From: Bacteroidales bacterium
GTDB taxonomy: Bacteria; Bacteroidota; Bacteroidia; Bacteroidales; F082
Assembly: GCA_017381865.1 (NCBI GenBank)
Contig: JAFOBJ010000085.1
Span: 5,613-69,612, forward strand
Length of the DNA stretch: 64,000 nucleotides
Direction of reading: 5' to 3'
Position 1 is the stretch's first letter. Every line of letters begins with the position of its first letter. Shown piece by piece: positions 4,691 to 57,366 of this stretch. Below the pieces are notes generated by a model, which ran no database searches, was not told the origin of the DNA, and saw only the letters and a program-made list of their open reading frames with translations. The translations under genes and the position numbers were made by a program.

Positions 4691-5752
4691 TTATCCAATC
4701 ACTCCACTTCCCAAAACAACCGGCTCCGTCTCGTGATAGATGATGCCGAATTGTCCGGCTGCTACTCCTGAAATAGCTTCGTCTGATATTATTGTCAAGC
4801 CGTTTTCTGTGAGTTTAAGATTTCCTAAGTTAAATCCTGGTTGATGGCGTATCTTATATCGTACTCTTTGTCCGTCAGCTAATGTAATAGCAGGATTCAT
4901 CGCCATGACATCAACCAAGTCGATGTTGTTTGTGTATTGAGCTATAGGATCGTAGCCTTTTGAAACATAGATAAGATTTCTTTCTGTGTCTTTCTTGACG
5001 ACGAACCAAGGACCTCCGCCTAAACCCAAACCTTTTCTCTGACCTATAGTATGGAACCAGAATCCCTTATGTTTTCCGAGTTTCTTGCCTGTTTCCATCT
5101 CTATGATGTCGCCTTCTTTTTCGCCTACATATTCTCTGATATAATCATTGTAGTTGATTTTACCCAAGAAACAAATACCTTGAGAGTCGTGGCGTTGTGC
5201 GCTTGGAAGCTTATGGAATTCCGCTAAACGACGCACCTCAGCCTTTGGCAAATCGCCGATAGGGAACATCGCCTTTGATAATTGATGATATGTTATTCTA
5301 GCGAGGAAATCGGTCTGGTCTTTAAAAGTATCGACTGCTGTTCCGAGCCATGAGATGCCGTTTTCGTCATACCACTGACGAGCGTAGTGACCGGTAGCTA
5401 TTCTGTCAAACTGGTAGCCCATCTTTTCCTCAAAGGCACCGAATTTAATCATTCTGTTACACATTACGTCAGGATTTGGCGTCAATCCTTTGCGTACCGA
5501 ATCCATGGTATAAGAAGCTACTCTGTCGTAATATTCTTTTTGTAAATCAACGATGTCGAATTTACATCCGTATTTTTTAGCGATGTATGTCGTTATTTCA
5601 ATATCTTCTTCTGAAGGACAATCCATCAAATCGTCTTTACCTTCGAGGCCAATTTTAATATAAAAGATATGAGGGTCGAAGCCTTGTTCTTTCAAAATTG
5701 GGACCATTACGGAGCTATCGACGCCACCAGACACCAAAGCAGCAATATTCAT
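4691..5752 (-). CDS. mnmA: tRNA-specific 2-thiouridylase
   Basis: N-terminal PP-loop ALVSGGVDSSV, 353 aa, conserved MnmA-like layout throughout. Confidence 0.93.
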   Translation of the reverse strand: MNIAALVSGGVDSSVMVPILKEQGFDPHIFYIKIGLEGKDDLMDCPSEEDIEITTYIAKKYGCKFDIVDLQKEYYDRVASYTMDSVRKGLTPNPDVMCNRMIKFGAFEEKMGYQFDRIATGHYARQWYDENGISWLGTAVDTFKDQTDFLARITYHQLSKAMFPIGDLPKAEVRRLAEFHKLPSAQRHDSQGICFLGKINYNDYIREYVGEKEGDIIEMETGKKLGKHKGFWFHTIGQRKGLGLGGGPWFVVKKDTERNLIYVSKGYDPIAQYTNNIDLVDVMAMNPAITLADGQRVRYKIRHQPGFNLGNLKLTENGLTIISDEAISGVAAGQFGIIYHETEPVVLGSGVIG

Positions 5753-48390: not shown

Positions 48391-48993
48391 TTAATTTATT
48401 TTAAGAACTTCAGGTTTTTCAACGTTCAAGATTTCAAATAATTGTTGAATATCAGTATTTGATACGCCAGCTGAAAAAGCCATTTCCTGTAATTCATTAT
48501 AATTAGGACTTACGCCATAACATTTTCTATAATGATAGTCGTACCTTATGTAAGCTTTGAAATAATAAAATATACCGCGAGGTTCTATCATTAATGCAGC
48601 ATCAATATATTCTTCAATTTTGTTTATTTCTGGACGTTGCAGTAAAAAAGCTTTCCTGCCTTTTAAAATGCAAATCGCAGCATAAAAATATACTTCAGCA
48701 TTGTCAAAATTATCTTCAATAGCTTTTTCAAATGCAAGCAAAGCCTTGTCGTATAATTTTAATCGTAGATAACACATAGCAATAGATGTATTCAAATTGT
48801 AATCATCTGGATGTTCATCTAAAGCTTTTCTGTAACTATTCGCATATTTATTGATTTCAGGTAATGGCATGGAAGCGACACTGTTGAATGTTGTTATGAC
48901 AACAGGTCTGTTGCACCATTCGCAAATATTTTGTCCTGTAGATACTGGCATTCCGCATCCTGGACATTTGATATCTAAAACATCTACACTCAT
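48391..48993 (-). CDS. Zinc-ribbon plus TPR-like repeat protein
   Basis: CPGCGMPV...CEWCNRPV (CxxC-x13-CxxC) followed by helical repeats (YRKALDEHPDDYN, YDKALLAFEKAIE). The ATG shares one nt with the upstream stop (TAATG). Confidence 0.55.
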   Translation of the reverse strand: MSVDVLDIKCPGCGMPVSTGQNICEWCNRPVVITTFNSVASMPLPEINKYANSYRKALDEHPDDYNLNTSIAMCYLRLKLYDKALLAFEKAIEDNFDNAEVYFYAAICILKGRKAFLLQRPEINKIEEYIDAALMIEPRGIFYYFKAYIRYDYHYRKCYGVSPNYNELQEMAFSAGVSNTDIQQLFEILNVEKPEVLKIN

Positions 48994-49673
48994 TATTGTT
49001 GATTTTTAAGCTTTATATTTCTTTCTGTAACTATTTTTAAAAGATTAGCAGAAATCGTTTTTATTGATTCTTTATTGTCTGCAGCAACAGCATTTTCTAA
49101 TTCAGATATTGTGTTGAGAATTTTTATCTCAATATCATAAACATTTTTATTACTTTTTGATGGAGAAGAACTGACAGCGTCATAGCATTTGTCTATGATT
49201 TTTCTTGTTGATAAATCAGTCGAATTTTGTGACAATAATCTGAGTTTGTAAGAACAGTCTTTTATATATGATATTTCTTGATCTTGTCTTGCCATTGAAT
49301 CTGCTGTATGTTCATTGGCAAGGAGGTTTGACAGCCATAATATGACAAAGATAGCTGCTAGAATTGATTGCGAGCTGAGAGCTATAGCAATACCTTCTAA
49401 ATTGAGAAATATGAAAACACAGCCGACGATGAGTTCTATAACAAAGTATTTCCATGTTATAAATACTGTCGATGCTTCATATCCATTTTTGCCGCTTCCT
49501 TTTTTGTTGGTAAATATTGACAAAACAAATATCAGATATGAAAAATGTATGAAACCATACGATATCCACACCGAATTGTGATTATTTGCAATGTCTCCAA
49601 ATAGGAAAAACAAAAGATTGAATATTATTAAAAATATTGATAATATTGTAAATAATAAGAAATTCTTTTTCAT
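48993..49673 (-). CDS. Four-TM membrane protein with cytoplasmic helical tail
   Basis: Four hydrophobic helices in the first 120 aa, then a coiled-coil-like region. Tightly packed between the SPFH and zinc-ribbon genes. Confidence 0.5.
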   Translation of the reverse strand: MKKNFLLFTILSIFLIIFNLLFFLFGDIANNHNSVWISYGFIHFSYLIFVLSIFTNKKGSGKNGYEASTVFITWKYFVIELIVGCVFIFLNLEGIAIALSSQSILAAIFVILWLSNLLANEHTADSMARQDQEISYIKDCSYKLRLLSQNSTDLSTRKIIDKCYDAVSSSPSKSNKNVYDIEIKILNTISELENAVAADNKESIKTISANLLKIVTERNIKLKNQQ

Positions 49674-49677
49674 AGCT

Positions 49678-50952
49678 TTATATATTTGGTGTTACAGGAG
49701 GTGGAGGAGGTGTTGGCCTTCCTTGATTGAACAAATTCTGGATTTCAGTATTTTTTGCAGGAATCCATTCTGCAAGACCTTCTTTCCAAACAAGTGTGTC
49801 AGGTGTTAACTGACCTGATTGTATGAATTGTTTAACTATTTGTAAATCAAAAGGTCCCATTTGCATATTATTTATGTACAAATAATATTTTGTTTCATTT
49901 TGATTTATTGGTGGCGGTGTCACTGTATTTGTTTGCTGAGGTGTTATTATCTGATTTGCCATGTTGCCAAATGCATTTCCTGCTCCCAAACCCATGCCTA
50001 AACCTGCTCCTGCAGAAGCAATGCCGCCGGCACCTGGATTGACAGATATGTTTTTGAGAATTTCAACAGTTTGTTGTTTGCCCCAGTTTTCACCCAAAGT
50101 TTGCATAACACCCAAATCACCTTGTGCAATATTAATTTTTGCCTTGGCTTCAGCTTGTGATTCAATGTCTCTAGCCATACCTTGTAAAGTGGCGTCACGG
50201 GTTATGTCTTTATTTGCTCTAACTCTTTCAATAAAGTCGTCAAGTATGTTAATGGCTACTATTGAAAATTTCACTAACTGGATACCATATTCCGATATGC
50301 TTTCATCAACTTCTGGCTGAATGTTTTTGGAAATGGATCTTGTCTGGTTTATGGCATCCAACATAGTATTTGGATATGCACGAAGAATATTATATGTGAC
50401 TTCTCTTATTATAGAAGACAATTCTCCACCCCAATATTCATTCATTTCTGCTTCGCTCTTGAAATAAATATTGTTTCCAAGTAGCTTTTTTAAACATAAT
50501 GTAGGGTTGGATATCTTAATCTTATAGACTGCCGCTATACCTAATTTCGCTTCCTGATTATAAATTCTGTCTTCTATTTCAATTGGTGTTTCTGTACCCC
50601 ATTTTATTTCTTTTGAATCTCCTTCTCTGAACCAGTGTACTCTACAATTGAATGAACTTACACCTCCAGAGAGCATATTTCTTAACCTGCTTATGAACGG
50701 ATAATTTTCTGTTGACAAGACATATCTTCCGTTAGTGAATTCTTCTTGTATTACTCCGTTTTTTTCAAATAAGGCAACTTCTCCAGGATGTACTATCAAT
50801 GTACTGCCTGTGTTAAAGTCTTCACGAGGATCAATTGAATAGAGAAGCTCTCCATCCGATTGATTCTCAATAACATCTTGAAAACTTTTTTCTCCGCGAT
50901 TGTATGCGGCTTCTTTGGGATCTTTGTCCCTTGTTATACCTAACCAACCCAT
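49678..50952 (-). CDS. SPFH (stomatin/prohibitin/flotillin-like, COG4260/YdjI-like) protein with Gly-rich linker and C-terminal GYF_2-like domain
   Basis: The N-terminal 270 aa resemble the so-called virion core protein / SPFH family. GAGGIASAGAGLGMGLGAGNAFG linker. C-terminus YYLYINNMQMGPFDLQIVKQFIQSGQLTPDTLVWKEGLAEWIPA is GYF_2-like; Pro-rich tail. Confidence 0.65.
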   Translation of the reverse strand: MGWLGITRDKDPKEAAYNRGEKSFQDVIENQSDGELLYSIDPREDFNTGSTLIVHPGEVALFEKNGVIQEEFTNGRYVLSTENYPFISRLRNMLSGGVSSFNCRVHWFREGDSKEIKWGTETPIEIEDRIYNQEAKLGIAAVYKIKISNPTLCLKKLLGNNIYFKSEAEMNEYWGGELSSIIREVTYNILRAYPNTMLDAINQTRSISKNIQPEVDESISEYGIQLVKFSIVAINILDDFIERVRANKDITRDATLQGMARDIESQAEAKAKINIAQGDLGVMQTLGENWGKQQTVEILKNISVNPGAGGIASAGAGLGMGLGAGNAFGNMANQIITPQQTNTVTPPPINQNETKYYLYINNMQMGPFDLQIVKQFIQSGQLTPDTLVWKEGLAEWIPAKNTEIQNLFNQGRPTPPPPPVTPNI

Positions 50953-51043
50953 AATAATTGTTTTTAAATTCTTATTAATTGATTCTTTAGTAAATGATTT
51001 CTATTGGCTTTGTATTGTCAATAAAAGGACTTTGGATAAAAAA

Positions 51044-51073
51044 AACTTTGTTGAAAATAATCCCAACAAAGTT
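51044..51073 (-). terminator. Strong hairpin terminator between the switch-proximal unit and the SPFH operon
   Basis: AACTTTGTTG / CAACAAAGTT 10-bp stem with a 10-nt loop. On the minus strand it is followed by a run of 7 T (complement of the A run at 51037-51043). Confidence 0.6.
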
Positions 51074-51082
51074 CTTTTTGAG

Positions 51083-51208: not shown

Positions 51209-51880
51209 TTAGCTTTTCTTTTCGCGTAATTTGTTCTTCATGGCTTTGATAGTTCTTTCTATTTCTTCATCATTTCTGTCTAAAGCACATGAAACCTTAT
51301 CACCTGGTACAACCATTTGGAATCTTGTTGTATTGATATTTTCAACTTTTTCTTTATTACCTTTGTTGTCGTAAATTGGAACTTCTTCTGTTTCAGATGT
51401 TGTAGAGAAGTTTACGATGTCTTTGTAGAAGTATTCGTCTGTACTTTCTTTTTTGCTAACATCATCTAAATTAAATGTATATTGATAGAAATATACTTGA
51501 GTATCAGAAAATAAAATACAAGAAACTTGATAACGTGAACTTCTCCATAATTGATCTTTTCCTTTTTTTGACCAAGATTTATCGTAAACGTAACCTTCAA
51601 AAATTACTGGAGGTACTTCACTTACTTGACTGAGATCCAATCCGTGTTTGTCTAATGCTTTTTGTTGAACATTCAATGCTGCAACTTTCTTTGCAACCAT
51701 TTCATCGTATTCTTCGTCTTTCATAATACGAGCAAGGAGACCTTGACGTAAGAAATAACGGATAACTTTTTTCTGTTCATCGTTTTTACCTTTGTAAGTT
51801 TCTTTTAACCACTTTGGGTCGCTGCTAAGATAAAGATAACCGATAGCACCCAAAACTAATAAAGCAATAATGCCGCCCAT
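51209..51880 (-). CDS. Hypothetical N-terminally membrane-anchored protein (223 aa), first gene downstream of the putative invertible promoter
   Basis: TM helix GGIIALLVLGAIGYLYL, then a soluble domain with beta-rich (PH-like?) character and a basic C-terminal helix. No family recognised. Confidence 0.55.
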   Translation of the reverse strand: MGGIIALLVLGAIGYLYLSSDPKWLKETYKGKNDEQKKVIRYFLRQGLLARIMKDEEYDEMVAKKVAALNVQQKALDKHGLDLSQVSEVPPVIFEGYVYDKSWSKKGKDQLWRSSRYQVSCILFSDTQVYFYQYTFNLDDVSKKESTDEYFYKDIVNFSTTSETEEVPIYDNKGNKEKVENINTTRFQMVVPGDKVSCALDRNDEEIERTIKAMKNKLREKKS

Positions 51881-51975
51881 AATTTGTTTGTTTTTTATTT
51901 GTTACTGATGCCAATTATACATATCAATATACTGTGGCATCAATTAACAGAATACTGACATATTAAACTTATTTA

Positions 51976-51995
51976 ATCTCTGTGTAAGAGATTTG
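51976..51995. repeat. Left arm of a perfect 20-bp inverted repeat (ATCTCTGTGTAAGAGATTTG)
   Basis: Exact reverse complement of 52133-52152. Confidence 0.95.
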
Positions 51996-52132
51996 CCAGC
52001 TCAAATAGAAAAAAATGTATAATTTATGGGAATAAAAAATTAGTGTTAATCTAAAGTTATCAACTTTTAAAAAAAAAATCATGTATTCTTTGTTGTAAAA
52101 CAAAAAAAAGTGTTATGTTTGCAACATAAACT

Positions 52133-52152
52133 CAAATCTCTTACACAGAGAT
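52133..52152. repeat. Right arm of the 20-bp inverted repeat (CAAATCTCTTACACAGAGAT)
   Basis: Exact reverse complement of 51976-51995. Confidence 0.95.
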
Positions 52153-52156
52153 ATTA

Positions 52157-53104
52157 TCATAATAATTTGATTATCATACTATTAGTATTATCTATAACAT
52201 TATTGTCTATTGTTGACAAATATATCTGTGTAGTGAGTTCTGAGTTATGTCCCAGGCTGTCGCTAATCACTGAAATCGGTATGTTTTTTCCTTTTGCGAT
52301 GCTTGCCCAAGAATGGCGGGCTACATACATCGTCAATGAATTTTGCAAGGAAATATTCTCACCTAACTTTTTCAAATGATAGTTTACCTTCTGACTGGCT
52401 CGCAGATATTGTTTCCTTTCGTCAACATTACAGTGCGAATCTATAATCGGCAATAAATACTGCGAATTACTGGTGTCATATTTGTCTACAATATCTTGCA
52501 TACATTTTTCCCACCTTATAAATAATTGTTGTTTCGTTTTGCGCCGATGGTACGATAAGATGCCTTGTTTTAAATCTTTTTTCTGCAAATATGCCATATC
52601 TACGAAAGACATACCTCTGGTGTAGAACGAAAATAAAAACATATTACGAGCAAAATCTAATGACGAATCTGACGATAAATCAATGGATTTGATAACTCTG
52701 ATGGTATTTAATGACACAGAACGTTTGATGGTTTTGTCAATGCCGGTATAAACTTTTTTGAATGGAAATTGTTGTTTTGTAAGATTATAGTTTACAGCTT
52801 TATTGTAAATGGCTCTGAAAGTTCTCATGTAAAAAGAAGAACTGTTGAGGCAGATGCCGTTGTCTTTCAGGTAAGATTCGTACGACATTATCATTTGCGC
52901 ATTTAGTTCTGCAAATGTTAAATCTTTGTCATTTCTGAAACGCTTGAAACTGTTTGATGTTGATTGGTATGTTTCTGATGTACGGTTTTTTCCCGATTTT
53001 TTTAAATCGAAAATGATATTGTCCATAAATTCAAATACTGAAATCTGATTGTCTGGATAATTTTCATTTTCATGACATACATTTTGTTTTTTAGAAATTT
53101 TCAA
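52157..53104 (-). CDS. Tyrosine-type site-specific recombinase (integrase family), candidate invertase
   Basis: SAM-like N-domain (YESYLKDNGICLNSSSFYMRTFRAIYNKAV). Catalytic region ARHSWAS...LGHNSELTTQIYL (R, HxxR, H, Y). The ORF opens at TTG 53104; the first ATG is at 53026. Confidence 0.85.
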   Translation of the reverse strand: MKISKKQNVCHENENYPDNQISVFEFMDNIIFDLKKSGKNRTSETYQSTSNSFKRFRNDKDLTFAELNAQMIMSYESYLKDNGICLNSSSFYMRTFRAIYNKAVNYNLTKQQFPFKKVYTGIDKTIKRSVSLNTIRVIKSIDLSSDSSLDFARNMFLFSFYTRGMSFVDMAYLQKKDLKQGILSYHRRKTKQQLFIRWEKCMQDIVDKYDTSNSQYLLPIIDSHCNVDERKQYLRASQKVNYHLKKLGENISLQNSLTMYVARHSWASIAKGKNIPISVISDSLGHNSELTTQIYLSTIDNNVIDNTNSMIIKLL

Positions 53105-53221
53105 AAAATCTCTTAACGCATAAATGATTTTTTTTTCATGATAGTTGATTTTTATTATGGGAATAAAAAGATAGAATACAAAGATGTACTCTATCGTGTT
53201 AATAAATCTTATTTAGGATTT

Positions 53222-53743
53222 TTATCCTCTATCAAAGAAAATGCTCTTTCTGCTTACGGAAAGTGGCAATGCAAGAACCATGCTGCATTCTGGCAATAAG
53301 TTGAGAGCCAGTACAGCTTGACCTACGGAGAACATGATGCGGCTGTCGATTCTGAAGTCGGCGGCTAATGATGCAGCAGAGCCGATTGCTATTCCGAGGT
53401 CGTTGGCGTTGAAGAAACAAGGCACGTTTTTAGGTTTGTCGCCACACGCTTTGAAACCGCATGCGCCACAGTTCAAGCCGAGCGGACTTATTTTCATTCC
53501 GAATAAAATGACAGCGTCGCAGTTCAAGATGTTTTCTGCATCGCGGTTGAGGAATGCCATGTCGCGTTCGGCGGCGAGTTGTTTCATTTTTTCAGCGATT
53601 TTCACGATGGTGTCGTCGGTTGCGACGGCGAGCACGAGATTGTCGATGCCTCTTGCCTTCGGTGCGGTGCGAGCAGCACACATTAATTTATTAGCGATGT
53701 CTTTGATATTTTCGTTACGGATTTGTTCTTCAAAAGTTATCAT
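53222..53743 (-). CDS. DUF2148-like protein (ferredoxin-domain-containing, COG4739-like)
   Basis: 173 aa with a CGACGFKACG motif. Minus-strand -7 box TAATTTTG (CAAAATTA at 53775-53782). Confidence 0.5.
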   Translation of the reverse strand: MITFEEQIRNENIKDIANKLMCAARTAPKARGIDNLVLAVATDDTIVKIAEKMKQLAAERDMAFLNRDAENILNCDAVILFGMKISPLGLNCGACGFKACGDKPKNVPCFFNANDLGIAIGSAASLAADFRIDSRIMFSVGQAVLALNLLPECSMVLALPLSVSRKSIFFDRG

Positions 53744-53908: not shown

Positions 53909-54985
53909 ATGAAGTACTTAACTTTAGAAAAAGCCATTGGGGCTTGGAAAAAAATTCAGCCGTTATCAGAAAACGACAGACAAAAATTAAGTCGTAGATT
54001 TACCGTTGATTTTAACTATAACTCTAACCATATTGAAGGTAATACATTGACGTATGGTCAAACTGAAATTTTGTTGCTTTTTGGAAAGGTTATAGGAGAA
54101 GCTGACATTAAAGATGTGCAGGACATGGCTGCAAGTAATGTTGCATTAAAAATGATGAATGAAGAGTCTTTAATACAAAATTCATCTCTCACTCAAAATT
54201 TCATTCGTACATTACATAAAATCATGTTGCGTGAAGATTACACTGTACATAAAAATCTTCCTGGAGGTTTTACCACAAGCTATGTGATTCATGCAGGTCA
54301 ATACAAAACACGTCCGAATAGTGTCATCACACGTTATGGTGACCGTTTTGATTATGCATCTCCAGAAGAAACACCAGCATTGATGACAGACCTTGTTGAT
54401 TGGTATAATCAAGCTGAAAAAGAAGGAAAGCTTTCTCCGGTTGAATTAGCAGCTTTATTTCATTATCGTTATATAAGGATTCACCCTTTTGAAGATGGAA
54501 ATGGACGTATCGCTCGTTTGCTTGTTAATTACATACTATCAAAGCATGGCTATCCGATGATAGTTGTTAGAAGTCGTAACAAGTGGGAATATCTTGAGGC
54601 TTTGCATCAAACAGATTTGCAGGTTGGCTTAGGCCCGAATGTAGGAGCGCAAGCTTCACTTCAATCAATAAAACCATTTATGCAATATTTTACGGGATTG
54701 GTGGCTCGAGAGATTTACAACGATGTTTGTTTTTTAACAGAACAAGACGAACTTCTTTGGTGGTATGATGGCGAGAAGGTGGAGTTTCGTTCGGCAAATT
54801 ATACTAAGATATTAAAACTAATGATGTCGGAACCAGTTGTTACACTTGATTACATTCAAAAAGAATTAGGTGTCAATATGTCGGCAGTAAAAAAATTGGT
54901 CAATCATTTAATGAAAAATAATTATATCGAGCGAGGAGAAAAAGAAGGCTCCTGGCGTGTCTTTATAACTCCTTCTATTTACTAA
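53909..54985 (+). CDS. Fic family protein (class II, intramolecular inhibitory helix) with C-terminal wHTH-like region
   Basis: Fic motif HPFEDGNGRIARLL. Upstream SNHIEG matches the inhibitory [S/T]xxxE[G/N] motif. Confidence 0.88.
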   Translation: MKYLTLEKAIGAWKKIQPLSENDRQKLSRRFTVDFNYNSNHIEGNTLTYGQTEILLLFGKVIGEADIKDVQDMAASNVALKMMNEESLIQNSSLTQNFIRTLHKIMLREDYTVHKNLPGGFTTSYVIHAGQYKTRPNSVITRYGDRFDYASPEETPALMTDLVDWYNQAEKEGKLSPVELAALFHYRYIRIHPFEDGNGRIARLLVNYILSKHGYPMIVVRSRNKWEYLEALHQTDLQVGLGPNVGAQASLQSIKPFMQYFTGLVAREIYNDVCFLTEQDELLWWYDGEKVEFRSANYTKILKLMMSEPVVTLDYIQKELGVNMSAVKKLVNHLMKNNYIERGEKEGSWRVFITPSIY

Positions 54986-54996
54986 CAATATATAAT

Positions 54997-57366
54997 ATGA
55001 ATAAAATCACAATTACTACAAAGCACTTTTTAATTCTATGTTTGTTCTTTATTTTTAATCTGAATGTCTTTGCGCAGAATAATATCTCATCGATTAAAGG
55101 TAAAGTCATTGATGAGAATGAAGCTCCTCTTCCTTATGTTTCTGTCGCTGTTTATCATGATGATAAAATAATAACAGGAACCATTACCAATGACGAAGGT
55201 ATTTTCACATTGAAAGTTCAGCAGTCTGAAGAAGAACTGCGTCTCACTTTTGATTTCATAGGTTATGTAAAAGAAGAGATAAAAATAATTCCAAACAAAG
55301 CTAAGATTGAAGTTAATGATGTCGTTTTGAAAGAGAATGTAGTAATGCTCGATGATGTTGTAGTCAGTTCTACAGCTGTCTCGCATAAATCGACGGTAGA
55401 ACATACAAGCATCAATGCGTCAGCTAATATTGCTTCTTCAAAAGGCAGCGCTCTTGATATACTCAGCGCTTCTTCTTCCGTGTCAATACAAAATGAAGAA
55501 ATTTCAATTCGTGGCAACAAAAACATCCTCGTCCTTATGGATGGCGTTCCTACAACAATAACAGATTTGTCAACAATACCGGCAGCTAATATTAAAAGCA
55601 TCGATGTCATTACCAATCCCGATGCGTCTTACGATTCTGAAGGAACAGGTGGAATCATCAATATCATCATGAAGAAAGAGAGTGCAAAAGGATTCAGCGG
55701 AGTGCTTGCTTCTAACTACGGATTCAACCATTTTGTGACGGGCAACGCTGGTTTTTCATATAATAGCAAAAAGGCTTCTTATCGTTTCAATTACAATACA
55801 AAATACGAAGACGACATCATAAACAGTTCGCTCACTCGTCTTATGAAAGAGTCGGGAAGTCTCATAAAACAGCAGATGATTTCTGACAGATATACATTCA
55901 ATAATAATGTAAGTCTCGGCGCTGATTTCAGAATCAACAAGAAAAACACTCTGATAGTCGATTTGAAATATATGTCGCCAAAATTGAATGTGAAACAGGA
56001 TTTACATAACATCATCGAGAATGGCAATATTATCAATGAAGAAAACCGTCATAACGATATGACATGGAACAGAGATAATATTGAAGCAGTTGTGATGTAT
56101 CGTCATATCATAAAACCAGAAATTTCTGATATTTCTTTCAGAGGTTCTGTGTCGAAGATTTGGGGAAAGAGACCTTCATATTATTATGTAGGTGGCGAGC
56201 TTTTAAATTATTCCAACTCAGGAGGCAGTCCTTTCATATCCAACTTTCAGACCGATTATAAACAAAAGTTAAACAAAGGAACCTTGAGTGCAGGAACCAA
56301 AGTGACATATCGCAGCAACGACATCTACCACGAATTCTATTCATGGGAAAATGAAGATTGGATTTATTCGCAATCCTTCAGCAATGATCTTTTACATACG
56401 GAATTGATACCAGCGGCATACGTGATGTTTTCTTCAAAAAATATAGGAAAATTCAACTTTAAATTAGGTTTGAGAGGTGAGTATAGCATAGTAACATTAG
56501 ATAGCAAACACGAAAATATTGATACTAGAAATGAAGATATTTTCATTGCGCCGAGTTTTTCTGGTACATATAAAGTATCCGACAAACAAGATTTGTCGCT
56601 TGCTTTCTCTCGCAGAATAGGACGTCCTACTTATCCACAGCTAAATCCTTATATGAGCATGGTCGATGCCATGACATACGAACAAGGCAATATGAATCTG
56701 CATCCGGAGAAGACATCTAAACTCGATTTGACATATAACATAAAAGGTGATAAATTCAATCTTTTTGCTGACGCTTATTTCAACTACACCACCGATTATA
56801 TTTCACAAGTCACAGAGATCGTTGATAGTCTGTTAATCACGACTTACATCAATGCTACTTACGATATGAAGAGCGGTCTTGATTTATCATTGAAGATTTT
56901 TCCTTTGGAATGGATGACAGCTACATTGAGTGCCAACACTTTCTATGTTATGACTAAAGGCGTTTTTGACGGAGCCGACATCGACAATGAAGGCTGGTCG
57001 AACAATTCCAATATCATGCTCGATTTTATTCCAAGAAAGACTACAAGCCTGCAGCTGCAATATTTCATCATGACTCCGCAATATTATCCGCAGCTCACCA
57101 CTTCTTTCACACATAAGATGAATGTGGGTGTCAAGCAGAAACTTATGAAAGGAGCCTTGACATTATCGCTGCTTGTCACCGATGTCTTCAACACTTACGA
57201 ATGGGAAGTTCATTCATACAACAGGATTTATGACCTCGCTAATATCAGCAAGCAGAAAAGCAGAATGTTGTGGATTGGAATTTCATATAACTTCAATTCA
57301 TACAAACAGAACAAAGTCGATAAGGCAGGAGAACTGGATAGAAACTTGATAAAGTTTGGATTGTAA
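54997..57366 (+). CDS. Outer-membrane beta-barrel receptor-like protein (CarboxypepD_reg N-domain plus plug plus barrel)
   Basis: Signal peptide. IKGKVIDENEAPLPYVSVAV carboxypeptidase-regulatory-like domain, plug-like region, long beta-strand-rich C-terminus. Confidence 0.7.
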   Translation: MNKITITTKHFLILCLFFIFNLNVFAQNNISSIKGKVIDENEAPLPYVSVAVYHDDKIITGTITNDEGIFTLKVQQSEEELRLTFDFIGYVKEEIKIIPNKAKIEVNDVVLKENVVMLDDVVVSSTAVSHKSTVEHTSINASANIASSKGSALDILSASSSVSIQNEEISIRGNKNILVLMDGVPTTITDLSTIPAANIKSIDVITNPDASYDSEGTGGIINIIMKKESAKGFSGVLASNYGFNHFVTGNAGFSYNSKKASYRFNYNTKYEDDIINSSLTRLMKESGSLIKQQMISDRYTFNNNVSLGADFRINKKNTLIVDLKYMSPKLNVKQDLHNIIENGNIINEENRHNDMTWNRDNIEAVVMYRHIIKPEISDISFRGSVSKIWGKRPSYYYVGGELLNYSNSGGSPFISNFQTDYKQKLNKGTLSAGTKVTYRSNDIYHEFYSWENEDWIYSQSFSNDLLHTELIPAAYVMFSSKNIGKFNFKLGLRGEYSIVTLDSKHENIDTRNEDIFIAPSFSGTYKVSDKQDLSLAFSRRIGRPTYPQLNPYMSMVDAMTYEQGNMNLHPEKTSKLDLTYNIKGDKFNLFADAYFNYTTDYISQVTEIVDSLLITTYINATYDMKSGLDLSLKIFPLEWMTATLSANTFYVMTKGVFDGADIDNEGWSNNSNIMLDFIPRKTTSLQLQYFIMTPQYYPQLTTSFTHKMNVGVKQKLMKGALTLSLLVTDVFNTYEWEVHSYNRIYDLANISKQKSRMLWIGISYNFNSYKQNKVDKAGELDRNLIKFGL

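Follow-up and report, generated by a model that had tools for sequence, protein, structure and literature searches.

We analysed a stretch of 64,000 nucleotides from a Bacteroidales bacterium (assembly GCA_017381865.1, contig JAFOBJ010000085.1, positions 5,613 to 69,612 of the forward strand), and this whole stretch is called the window below. Between a tyrosine recombinase gene and a gene for a membrane protein of 223 aa (p223), the window carries a short promoter-bearing segment flanked by two inverted arms. We conclude that this locus is a DNA inversion switch (inverton) of the Bacteroidales tyrosine-recombinase type, currently in the OFF orientation, and we put the probability of this reading at about 0.85. 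A phase-variable switch had been proposed at this place in an initial annotation of the same DNA. The proposal is supported here by four lines of evidence: the two arms co-vary across related lineages, the promoter box is conserved, the recombinase belongs to a family associated with such sites, and a related locus that lacks the switch has a fixed promoter instead. The features of the locus are collected in Table 1; loci compared with the window carry L numbers.

Architecture of the element and its promoter

The arms are exact reverse complements of each other over 20 nt and lie 137 bp apart. This had been claimed in the initial annotation and was confirmed when the coordinates were re-read from the sequence. 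Each arm is composed of a pair of 6-nt half-sites, inverted relative to each other, with an asymmetric core of 5 nt between them, a point that the initial annotation did not contain. In the left arm, ATCTCT-GTGTA-AGAGAT forms a 17-nt imperfect palindrome with TTG on its inner side. The right arm ends 4 nt short of the stop codon of the recombinase gene, and the open reading frame (ORF) together with the Pfam domains of its product bore out this earlier assignment as well. Among inverted repeats with a spacer of 20-600 nt, the arm pair is the longest perfect one in the window, and the runner-up has 14 nt. First-order Markov simulation of the window, run 200 times, gave no inverted repeat longer than 17 nt. 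The arm pattern has just two matches in the 64-kb window when up to three mismatches are allowed, whereas shuffles predict 0. The inverted repeat is unique in the window and far beyond chance.

The segment between the arms carries a promoter of the Bacteroidota type on its plus strand. It points out through the right arm at the 3' end of the recombinase gene, an arrangement that corresponds to the OFF state. The full pattern TTTG-N19-21-TAnnTTTG has a single match in the window on both strands, and that match is located inside the spacer, so that the consensus promoter of the initial annotation stands. This full pattern appears in 0.4% of spacer shuffles. The -7 box alone appears in 24% of them and is not significant by itself. 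TAnnTTTG is about three-fold enriched in the non-coding DNA of the window. Its sense bias upstream of genes had been considered as a calibration for promoter use and was dropped because 17 versus 14 is too weak. On the minus strand, a scan of 51881-52132, which covers the spacer and the 95-nt leader of p223, found no TAnnTTTG, in agreement with what had been stated before.

Table 1. Features of the switch locus and of the genes around it, in window coordinates.
Feature	Position	Strand	Description
TPR protein gene	48391-48993	minus	200 aa; TPR (Pfam)
p226 gene	48993-49673	minus	226-aa protein; no family match
SPFH protein gene	49678-50952	minus	SPFH/Band_7_1 + GYF_2 (Pfam)
Terminator-like hairpin	51038..51079	minus	hairpin + U8 between p223 and SPFH genes; -19 kcal/mol, z = -5.65
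p223 gene	51209..51880	minus	first gene under predicted control of the switch, 223 aa; predicted N-terminal membrane helix, helical region, PH-like beta-sandwich, C-terminal helix
Leader	51881..51975	minus	fixed 95 nt, distal arm to p223 ATG; 85-100% identity among lineages
Left (distal) arm	51976..51995		ATCTCTGTGTAAGAGATTTG; exact reverse complement of 52133-52152
Invertible segment (spacer)	51996..52132		137 bp, 21% GC
Bacteroidota-type promoter	52089..52121	plus	-33 TTTG 52089-52092, 21 nt, -7 TATGTTTG 52114-52121
Right (recombinase-proximal) arm	52133..52152		17-nt site ATCTCT-TACAC-AGAGAT; CAA before it, inner side
Tyrosine recombinase gene	52157..53104	minus	315 aa from TTG at 53104, or 289 aa from ATG at 53026
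DUF2148 gene	53222-53743	minus	upstream of recombinase

Co-evolution of the arms in related lineages

Related loci were obtained in two ways. Exact-protein look-ups gave L001-L027 and L183-L190, which are independent assemblies of the same and sister lineages, and a p223 alignment was scanned against species-representative genomes to give L028-L058. Contigs among them carry the sample names XIEF21 and TONG22 in the European Nucleotide Archive (ENA), which we take to be ruminant gut metagenomes. The switch linked to p223 was found in six lineages, and the order DUF2148 - recombinase - switch - p223 is stable across lineages. The recombinase of the window/L001 type is 99-100% identical to that of the window and its arms have the core GTGTA. 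The L003 and L013 types both have recombinases of 92% identity, with cores GTGTA and ATGTA, respectively. Identity falls to 76% in L027 (core GTATA) and to 62% in L028 from Candidatus Caccoplasma sp. (core ACATA). The sixth lineage, L187, has the core TTATA, and of its upstream gene the contig retains just the C-terminal end.

None of the six lineages shows a change in the half-sites TCTCT and AGAGA. In each of them the two arms are perfect reverse complements of one another, with 0 mismatches in 15 nt. Compared with the window, seven core positions are altered; all seven changes are mirrored in the partner arm, and unmirrored changes number 0. The spacer drifts far more rapidly than the arms do, and the leader hardly varies. 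Identity to the window in arms, spacer and leader is 95-100%, 73% and 93% for L003, 90-95%, 85% and 94% for L013, and 80-90%, 46% and 85% for L027. At a recombinase protein identity of 92%, the adjoining 3' end of that gene is 87-88% identical and the spacer 73-85%. For tyrosine recombinases such as Cre, Flp, Xer and lambda Int, the overlap region has to be identical for strands to be exchanged. Frozen half-sites combined with cores that match their partners are the pattern expected of paired tyrosine-recombinase sites. The comparison of lineages therefore supports the view that the two arms behave as paired recombination sites.

A promoter-like box is also present in all six lineages. Always outward-facing, it occupies the same end of the spacer, at a distance of 11-20 nt from the arm next to the recombinase. 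TTTG-N21-TATGTTTG is its form in the window and L013 lineages, and TTTG-N21-TATTTTCG that in L003. The -7 box reads TATTTTCG in L027, TAAATTTG in L028 and TAATTTTG in L187, so that the TAnnTTTG form is kept in the window, L013, L028 and L187 lineages. The related locus L185 has SecDF upstream of p223 and contains no recombinase and no repeats; there, a fixed TATATTTG lies about 75 nt upstream of the p223 ATG. This fits a history in which the promoter moved onto the invertible segment in the lineages that bear the switch.

Two further observations concern the related contigs. In L027, two distal arms stand in tandem, 2 nt apart (1285-1320). In L023 (1-120; ENA ERZ28019313 k141_2191642), a GC-rich, non-bacterial-looking sequence is joined inside the spacer about 50 nt from the distal arm, and this chimera is probably a misassembly.

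The recombinase and its family

Pfam assigns the domains Phage_int_SAM_5 (PF13102) and Phage_integrase (PF00589) to the recombinase. When its C-terminal part is aligned to XerA, the Arg, His and nucleophilic Tyr residues of the two proteins coincide. In an alignment of ten family members, R163, R263, H264, H286 and Y295 are invariant, and the motifs SFYTRGMSFVD, YVARHSWA and LGHxSExTTQIY are essentially so. Judged from these alignments, the catalytic motifs of the recombinase are intact. The initial annotation had named two kinds of enzyme that flip such promoters, Mpi and locally encoded tyrosine recombinases. The local enzyme is retained by the present analysis, and Mpi falls away since the arms are sites of the tyrosine-recombinase type.

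Two observations were made around the start of the recombinase gene. The sequence TAAGAGATTT at 53106-53115 (minus strand), just 5' of the TTG, repeats the inner half of the arm (AGAGAT + TTT). The window, L001 and L013 lineages retain it and L003 does so in part; it could be an autoregulatory half-site, a leftover of a lost N-terminal coding region, or chance. In L013-L017, whose recombinase start is altered as described below, the upstream TTG also reads TTT, and gene callers yield a 245-aa product missing part of the core-binding domain. Both arms of this lineage still hold the mirrored ATGTA core despite the altered start.

A metagenome scan with the degenerate arm ATCTCTRTRTAAGAGAT extended the comparison to other switches. 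The matches listed were mostly single chance occurrences, and no copy of the window's own locus was among them. At least seven of the loci listed were informative: L162, L093, L071, L113, L135, L101 and L086. The first six have recombinases 45-50% identical to that of the window, followed by arms of the ATCTCT-N5-AGAGAT class 160-162 bp apart; one half-site is TCTTT in L093, L071, L113 and L101. All six carry a TATTTTTG box at the proximal end that faces the recombinase, again the OFF state, and a NusG/UpxY-like gene comes first downstream. In Bacteroides, a UpxY gene characteristically stands first in a capsule locus (PMC4611039), and we refer to these six as capsule-type loci. In the 60-70 nt between recombinase stop and proximal arm they contain direct repeats TGAACCAAA(A/T)TGAACCAA, and these may be accessory protein-binding sites. 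The window has no direct repeats of the TGAACCAA type in front of its closely placed arm.

L086 and L162 provide a natural pair. They share the same arms and the same downstream flank, while the spacer of one is the reverse complement of that of the other, and the promoter of L086 faces the downstream gene. Global alignment of the two spacers scored 52.5 in reverse complement and 22.5 in forward orientation. This indicates that switches of the TCTCT-N5-AGAGA arm class occur in both orientations in nature.

Closer relatives of the recombinase are proteins of 402 aa that are 60% identical to it and include one, P0104, from Bacteroides uniformis (locus L179). In L179, TCTCT-TTGCA-AGAGA arms surround a TACTTTTG box; the distal arm is single, and the proximal arm is present as two tandem copies 6 nt apart (5239-5274). 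Fimbrial genes (DUF3575, DUF3868, Fimbrillin_C) form the operon that comes next. Tandem extra arms, as in L027 and L179, could offer alternative inversion end points or be accessory binding sites. Taken together, recombinases 45-62% identical to that of the window adjoin TCTCT-N5-AGAGA sites at other switches. By sequence, the window recombinase is a member of the family found beside the TCTCT-N5-AGAGA sites of capsule and fimbrial switches.

Contig ends at the arms

Indirect signs of inversion at this locus were found in public assemblies. Logan contigs are de Bruijn assemblies with k=31 (PMC12424806), and the arm repeat, at 19-21 nt, is shorter than k. We simulated the k=31 graph. With the reference orientation alone, the graph had no branch; the possibility that the repeat by itself breaks such assemblies was ruled out in this way. 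With both orientations present, exactly four break points arose. On the proximal side they are the last base of the proximal repeat and a position 30 nt from the start of the proximal arm. On the distal side they are the mirror position before the distal repeat and the first base of that repeat.

Eight Logan contigs end within this region of about 200 nt, and six of the eight ends, from five samples, coincide exactly with predicted break points. L008 (SRR24653626) ends with ...GAGATTT at the last base of its lineage's 19-nt repeat, and L190 (ERR3393568) ends with ...GATTTGC at the last base of its lineage's 21-nt repeat. L009 (SRR17418354) and L012 (SRR35083114) both end 11 nt beyond the 19-nt repeat. 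On the other side, L183 (SRR24653626) starts 11 nt ahead of the distal repeat and L184 (SRR24653781) starts at its first base. The break point shifts by lineage with the length of the repeat, 19 nt versus 21 nt. It is very unlikely that six of eight ends agree by chance. The exact agreement indicates that the flank is joined at the repeat boundary to something besides the reference spacer, and inversion would be the simplest source of such alternative junctions.

Objections and alternative explanations

Several observations weigh against the switch. The ON orientation was seen in 0 of 24 complete copies (the window and 23 others, from six lineages). Exact-protein look-ups for an assembled ON copy returned none, in a listing that merges loci with the same neighbouring genes and may hide variants. 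Set beside the behaviour of the class, this count is not evidence against a switch, because assemblies report the majority orientation and switches with an adjacent recombinase are strongly OFF-biased: for the BT1927 orthologue the OFF fraction was 99.992% in culture and about 92% in a human sample (PMC4611039). The break-point evidence is indirect, coming from contig ends rather than reads, and two of the eight ends match no predicted position; L011 (SRR24653747) ends 5 nt into the arm, and L022 (SRR12529092) starts 7 nt ahead of it. As to the promoter, TAnnTTTG alone is common in AT-rich DNA, its preference upstream of the window genes is weak (17 sense versus 14 antisense), and the -7 box TATTTTCG of L003 and L027 has one mismatch. 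The window recombinase lacks the N-terminal domain of about 95 aa that its 402-aa, 60%-identical relatives possess, and in the L013 lineage ACG stands in place of the ATG start of the 289-aa recombinase. Downstream, a strong and conserved terminator-like hairpin follows the first gene, and the genes presumed to be under control do not make up any surface structure that is recognised.

Some of these points would be expected if the locus were a relic, locked when inversion was lost with the N-terminal domain of the recombinase, so that the promoter is permanently OFF or serves antisense transcription only. The lack of ON copies agrees with this, as do the 289-315 aa of the recombinase compared with 402 aa in its relatives and the lost start codon of the L013 lineage. 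We consider a locked relic unlikely. Its arms would be decaying sites, whereas the arms observed are perfect and their cores are mirrored within the short-recombinase lineages (GTGTA versus ATGTA). The capsule-type relatives, of about 310-330 aa, are also without the N-terminal domain. Six k=31 contig ends point to mixed junctions in natural samples, and a strong OFF bias is usual for the class.

An explanation without any inversion is that the arms act through RNA or DNA structure, as a long-range stem, a cruciform or hairpins, and form a terminator, an insulator or a processing site. Mirrored changes in the arms would also keep a 20-bp RNA stem, several T-runs lie on the sense strand of the spacer, and a small hairpin is possible in each arm. 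A long-range stem does not account for internal palindromes with invariant half-sites, nor for the same half-sites beside related recombinases and ahead of unrelated operons. The homologous element exists in both orientations (L086/L162), and the contig break points need recombinant junctions. A search of 51700-52300 against Rfam found no RNA family, just sub-threshold miRNA-like hairpin matches. A purely structural role is in our judgement very improbable.

It is still harder to believe that the arms serve another kind of recombination, for example to integrate or excise a mobile element or to recombine with a third genomic site. The recombinase is in the phage-integrase superfamily, its B. 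uniformis relative adjoins mobilisation genes, L027 and L179 have extra tandem arms, and the break points show recombinant junctions without naming the partner. The sites are nevertheless inverted and 137 bp apart, each arm has break points, the window shows no mobile-element genes beside the locus, and the gene order from DUF2148 to p223 is stable. Equally implausible is a miniature inverted-repeat transposable element (MITE) or insertion-sequence remnant placed by chance between recombinase gene and operon, which would explain a short (177 bp), AT-rich unit with perfect terminal repeats, but not its lack of a second copy within the window or of a target-site duplication (flanks ...GATAAT and TAAATA...), its same position in six lineages with drifting interior and co-varying ends, and its consistent coupling to one recombinase family.

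Proposed mechanism of the switch

We return to the inversion switch as the preferred reading. We infer that the window recombinase itself would be the catalyst, and the transcription starts, the extent of the transcript, the antisense effect and the ON phenotype given below are likewise predictions from the layout of the locus. The recombinase would bind each 17-nt arm as a dimer, on half-sites arranged around the 5-nt core in a lox/FRT-like manner. The oppositely oriented arms would then be paired and strands exchanged within the identical cores, by which the 137-bp segment would be inverted. In the OFF state, the promoter is predicted to fire from about 52127 on the plus strand through the right arm and antisense into the recombinase 3' end. 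That this antisense transcription could hold the switch OFF is a more speculative idea, which we regard as doubtful. In the ON state, the -7 box would lie at 52014-52007 on the minus strand and transcription would start near 52000 on the same strand. Transcription would pass the left arm and the structured 95-nt leader before reaching p223, which gives a 5' untranslated region (UTR) of about 120 nt. For the SPFH, 226-aa and TPR genes to be included, the terminator-like hairpin would have to be read through.

Leader, p223 and downstream genes

The leader contains a hairpin at about 51905-51943 on the minus strand (GATGCCA-N21-TGGCATC), approximately 22 nt before the p223 ATG, with an RNA fold z of -3.6. 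A hairpin with different stem sequences is located at the same place in L028, L187, L185 and L029. The stems in these other lineages, with or without the switch, are GATACC/GGTGTC, GGACGC/GCGTCC, GACGC/GCGTC and GGCGC/GCGCC. RNAalifold gave weak support for the hairpin, from an alignment partly out of register. The leader hairpin may be a cis-regulatory RNA element.

The AlphaFold2 model of p223, built with 40 homologues, has a mean pLDDT of 91. A fold search of the Protein Data Bank (PDB) with this model returned nothing significant, and the best were weak matches to PH domains with E of about 0.07 or higher. On the basis of the model and this weak PH resemblance, p223 is predicted to be a membrane-anchored protein with a PH-like fold. 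Neither p223 nor the 226-aa protein had a match in Pfam, NCBIfam or PADLOC, and the four operon proteins together gave no PADLOC defence model and no NCBIfam family above cut-off.

The hairpin between the p223 and SPFH genes has a stem and a U-run that are invariant in four lineages. It looks like an intrinsic terminator or attenuator within an apparent single operon. The consequence is that the switch would be sure to address p223, and would reach the SPFH, p226 and TPR genes only with read-through.

The cluster of four genes is widespread. In varying order it is present in Prevotella, Paenibacillus, Gorillibacterium, Sporosarcina, Actinobacteria, Chloroflexota and Pseudomonadota, and in these other taxa a recombinase hardly ever accompanies it. 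Between Bacteroidales and Firmicutes, the identity of the TPR protein is 40-60%. In L028 (4660-7750) and L187 (1343-4343), what comes after the same switch and p223 is a YidD-like gene together with a gene for an 887-aa HerA/DUF87 ATPase, in place of the SPFH genes. The HerA-like ATPase of L028 was considered as a defence protein and set aside; its PADLOC matches are weak (best E about 1e-12) and consistent with shared ATPase homology.

In Bacteroidales, on-off control typically concerns surface and phage-related functions, and for this reason the module could be a resistance or conflict system. That the switch phase-varies this uncharacterised four-gene membrane module as a new envelope-level system of phage resistance or conflict is a speculative idea, which we regard as doubtful.

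The neighbourhood on the other side of the switch is variable. Between the DUF2148 gene and metG, the window has at 53909-57366 (plus strand) a Fic/DOC-family gene and an OMP_b-brl_3/TonB-type receptor gene. The Fic gene (53909-54985) has a PADLOC match to SoFic/PDC-S04 and is unrelated to the operon proteins. L004 is without the Fic and receptor genes, and its metG directly adjoins DUF2148. From this comparison, the Fic/receptor block is a strain-variable insertion beside the switch locus.

Significance and comparison with known systems

Invertible promoters with neighbouring tyrosine recombinases vary capsules, S-layers, fimbriae, restriction systems and resistance genes in gut Bacteroidales. 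What is unusual here is the cargo, an uncharacterised cross-phylum membrane module that has a fixed promoter in a switch-less relative and for which no phase variation has been reported. A literature search pairing 'SPFH' with 'invertible promoter' found no paper with both. If the module is indeed a resistance or conflict system, the natural ON/OFF switch would be a handle for finding its phenotype. The series of lineages is a natural experiment on site evolution, and separates the recognition parts of the TCTCT-N5-AGAGA site from its crossover part. In addition, exact break points in public k=31 assemblies can indicate mixed orientation without reads.

The E. coli fimS switch, inverted by FimB and FimE, has 9-bp repeats, a 314-bp segment and a sigma-70 promoter, and needs IHF and Lrp. 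What it would have in common with our locus is promoter inversion by a tyrosine recombinase; the enzymes of the two systems are not closely related, and their promoters are of different types. The arms resemble the sites of Cre-loxP and Flp-FRT, in which two inverted binding elements surround an asymmetric core that has to match between partners. Mpi is a serine invertase whose repeat consensus is ARACGTWCGT, and this consensus is absent from both arms. The Mpi capsule switches of B. fragilis have the same phase-variable promoter outcome, whereas enzyme class and sites differ. The Tsr family of B. fragilis, for example Tsr26, as far as it is described in PMC4611039 (from Weinacht et al. 2004), can be likened by arrangement alone: a local tyrosine recombinase flips a promoter just downstream of it.

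The switches of Bacteroides are nearer in design. Their sites are 17-nt imperfect palindromes that vary just at the centre, a tyrosine recombinase is encoded next to them, and in assembled genomes their near-consensus promoter is in the OFF state (bioRxiv 10.1101/521070; PMC4611039). The B. thetaiotaomicron switches for the BT1927-type S-layer, BT4014 restriction and capsule (Taketani 2015, PMC4611039; Porter et al., bioRxiv 10.1101/521070) share the recombinase-adjacent anatomy with the window. Their promoter segment of about 150-300 bp, with an outward near-consensus -7 box and OFF in assemblies, corresponds to the 137 bp found here. The arms of BT1927, GTTAC-N7-GTAAC (PMC4611039), are of another class than TCTCT-N5-AGAGA with its 5-nt core, but the architecture is the same. 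Capsule, S-layer and restriction are the cargo in B. thetaiotaomicron, and a PH-like membrane protein with an SPFH/TPR module is the cargo here. The host here is an uncultured rumen Bacteroidales and its switch is known from sequence alone, unlike the B. thetaiotaomicron systems.

Most similar are the capsule (UpxY) and fimbrial loci described above (L113, L135, L101, L093, L071, L162/L086 and L179), which have the same half-sites, 17-nt architecture and motifs as the window and an OFF-state promoter at the recombinase-proximal end. They differ in their downstream operons and in one further feature each: the L162 type has 60-70 nt with TGAACCAA repeats before the arm and the L179 type has the recombinase N-terminal domain, whereas the window has neither. 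The locus adds a further example of well-documented promoter inversion, not a new principle.

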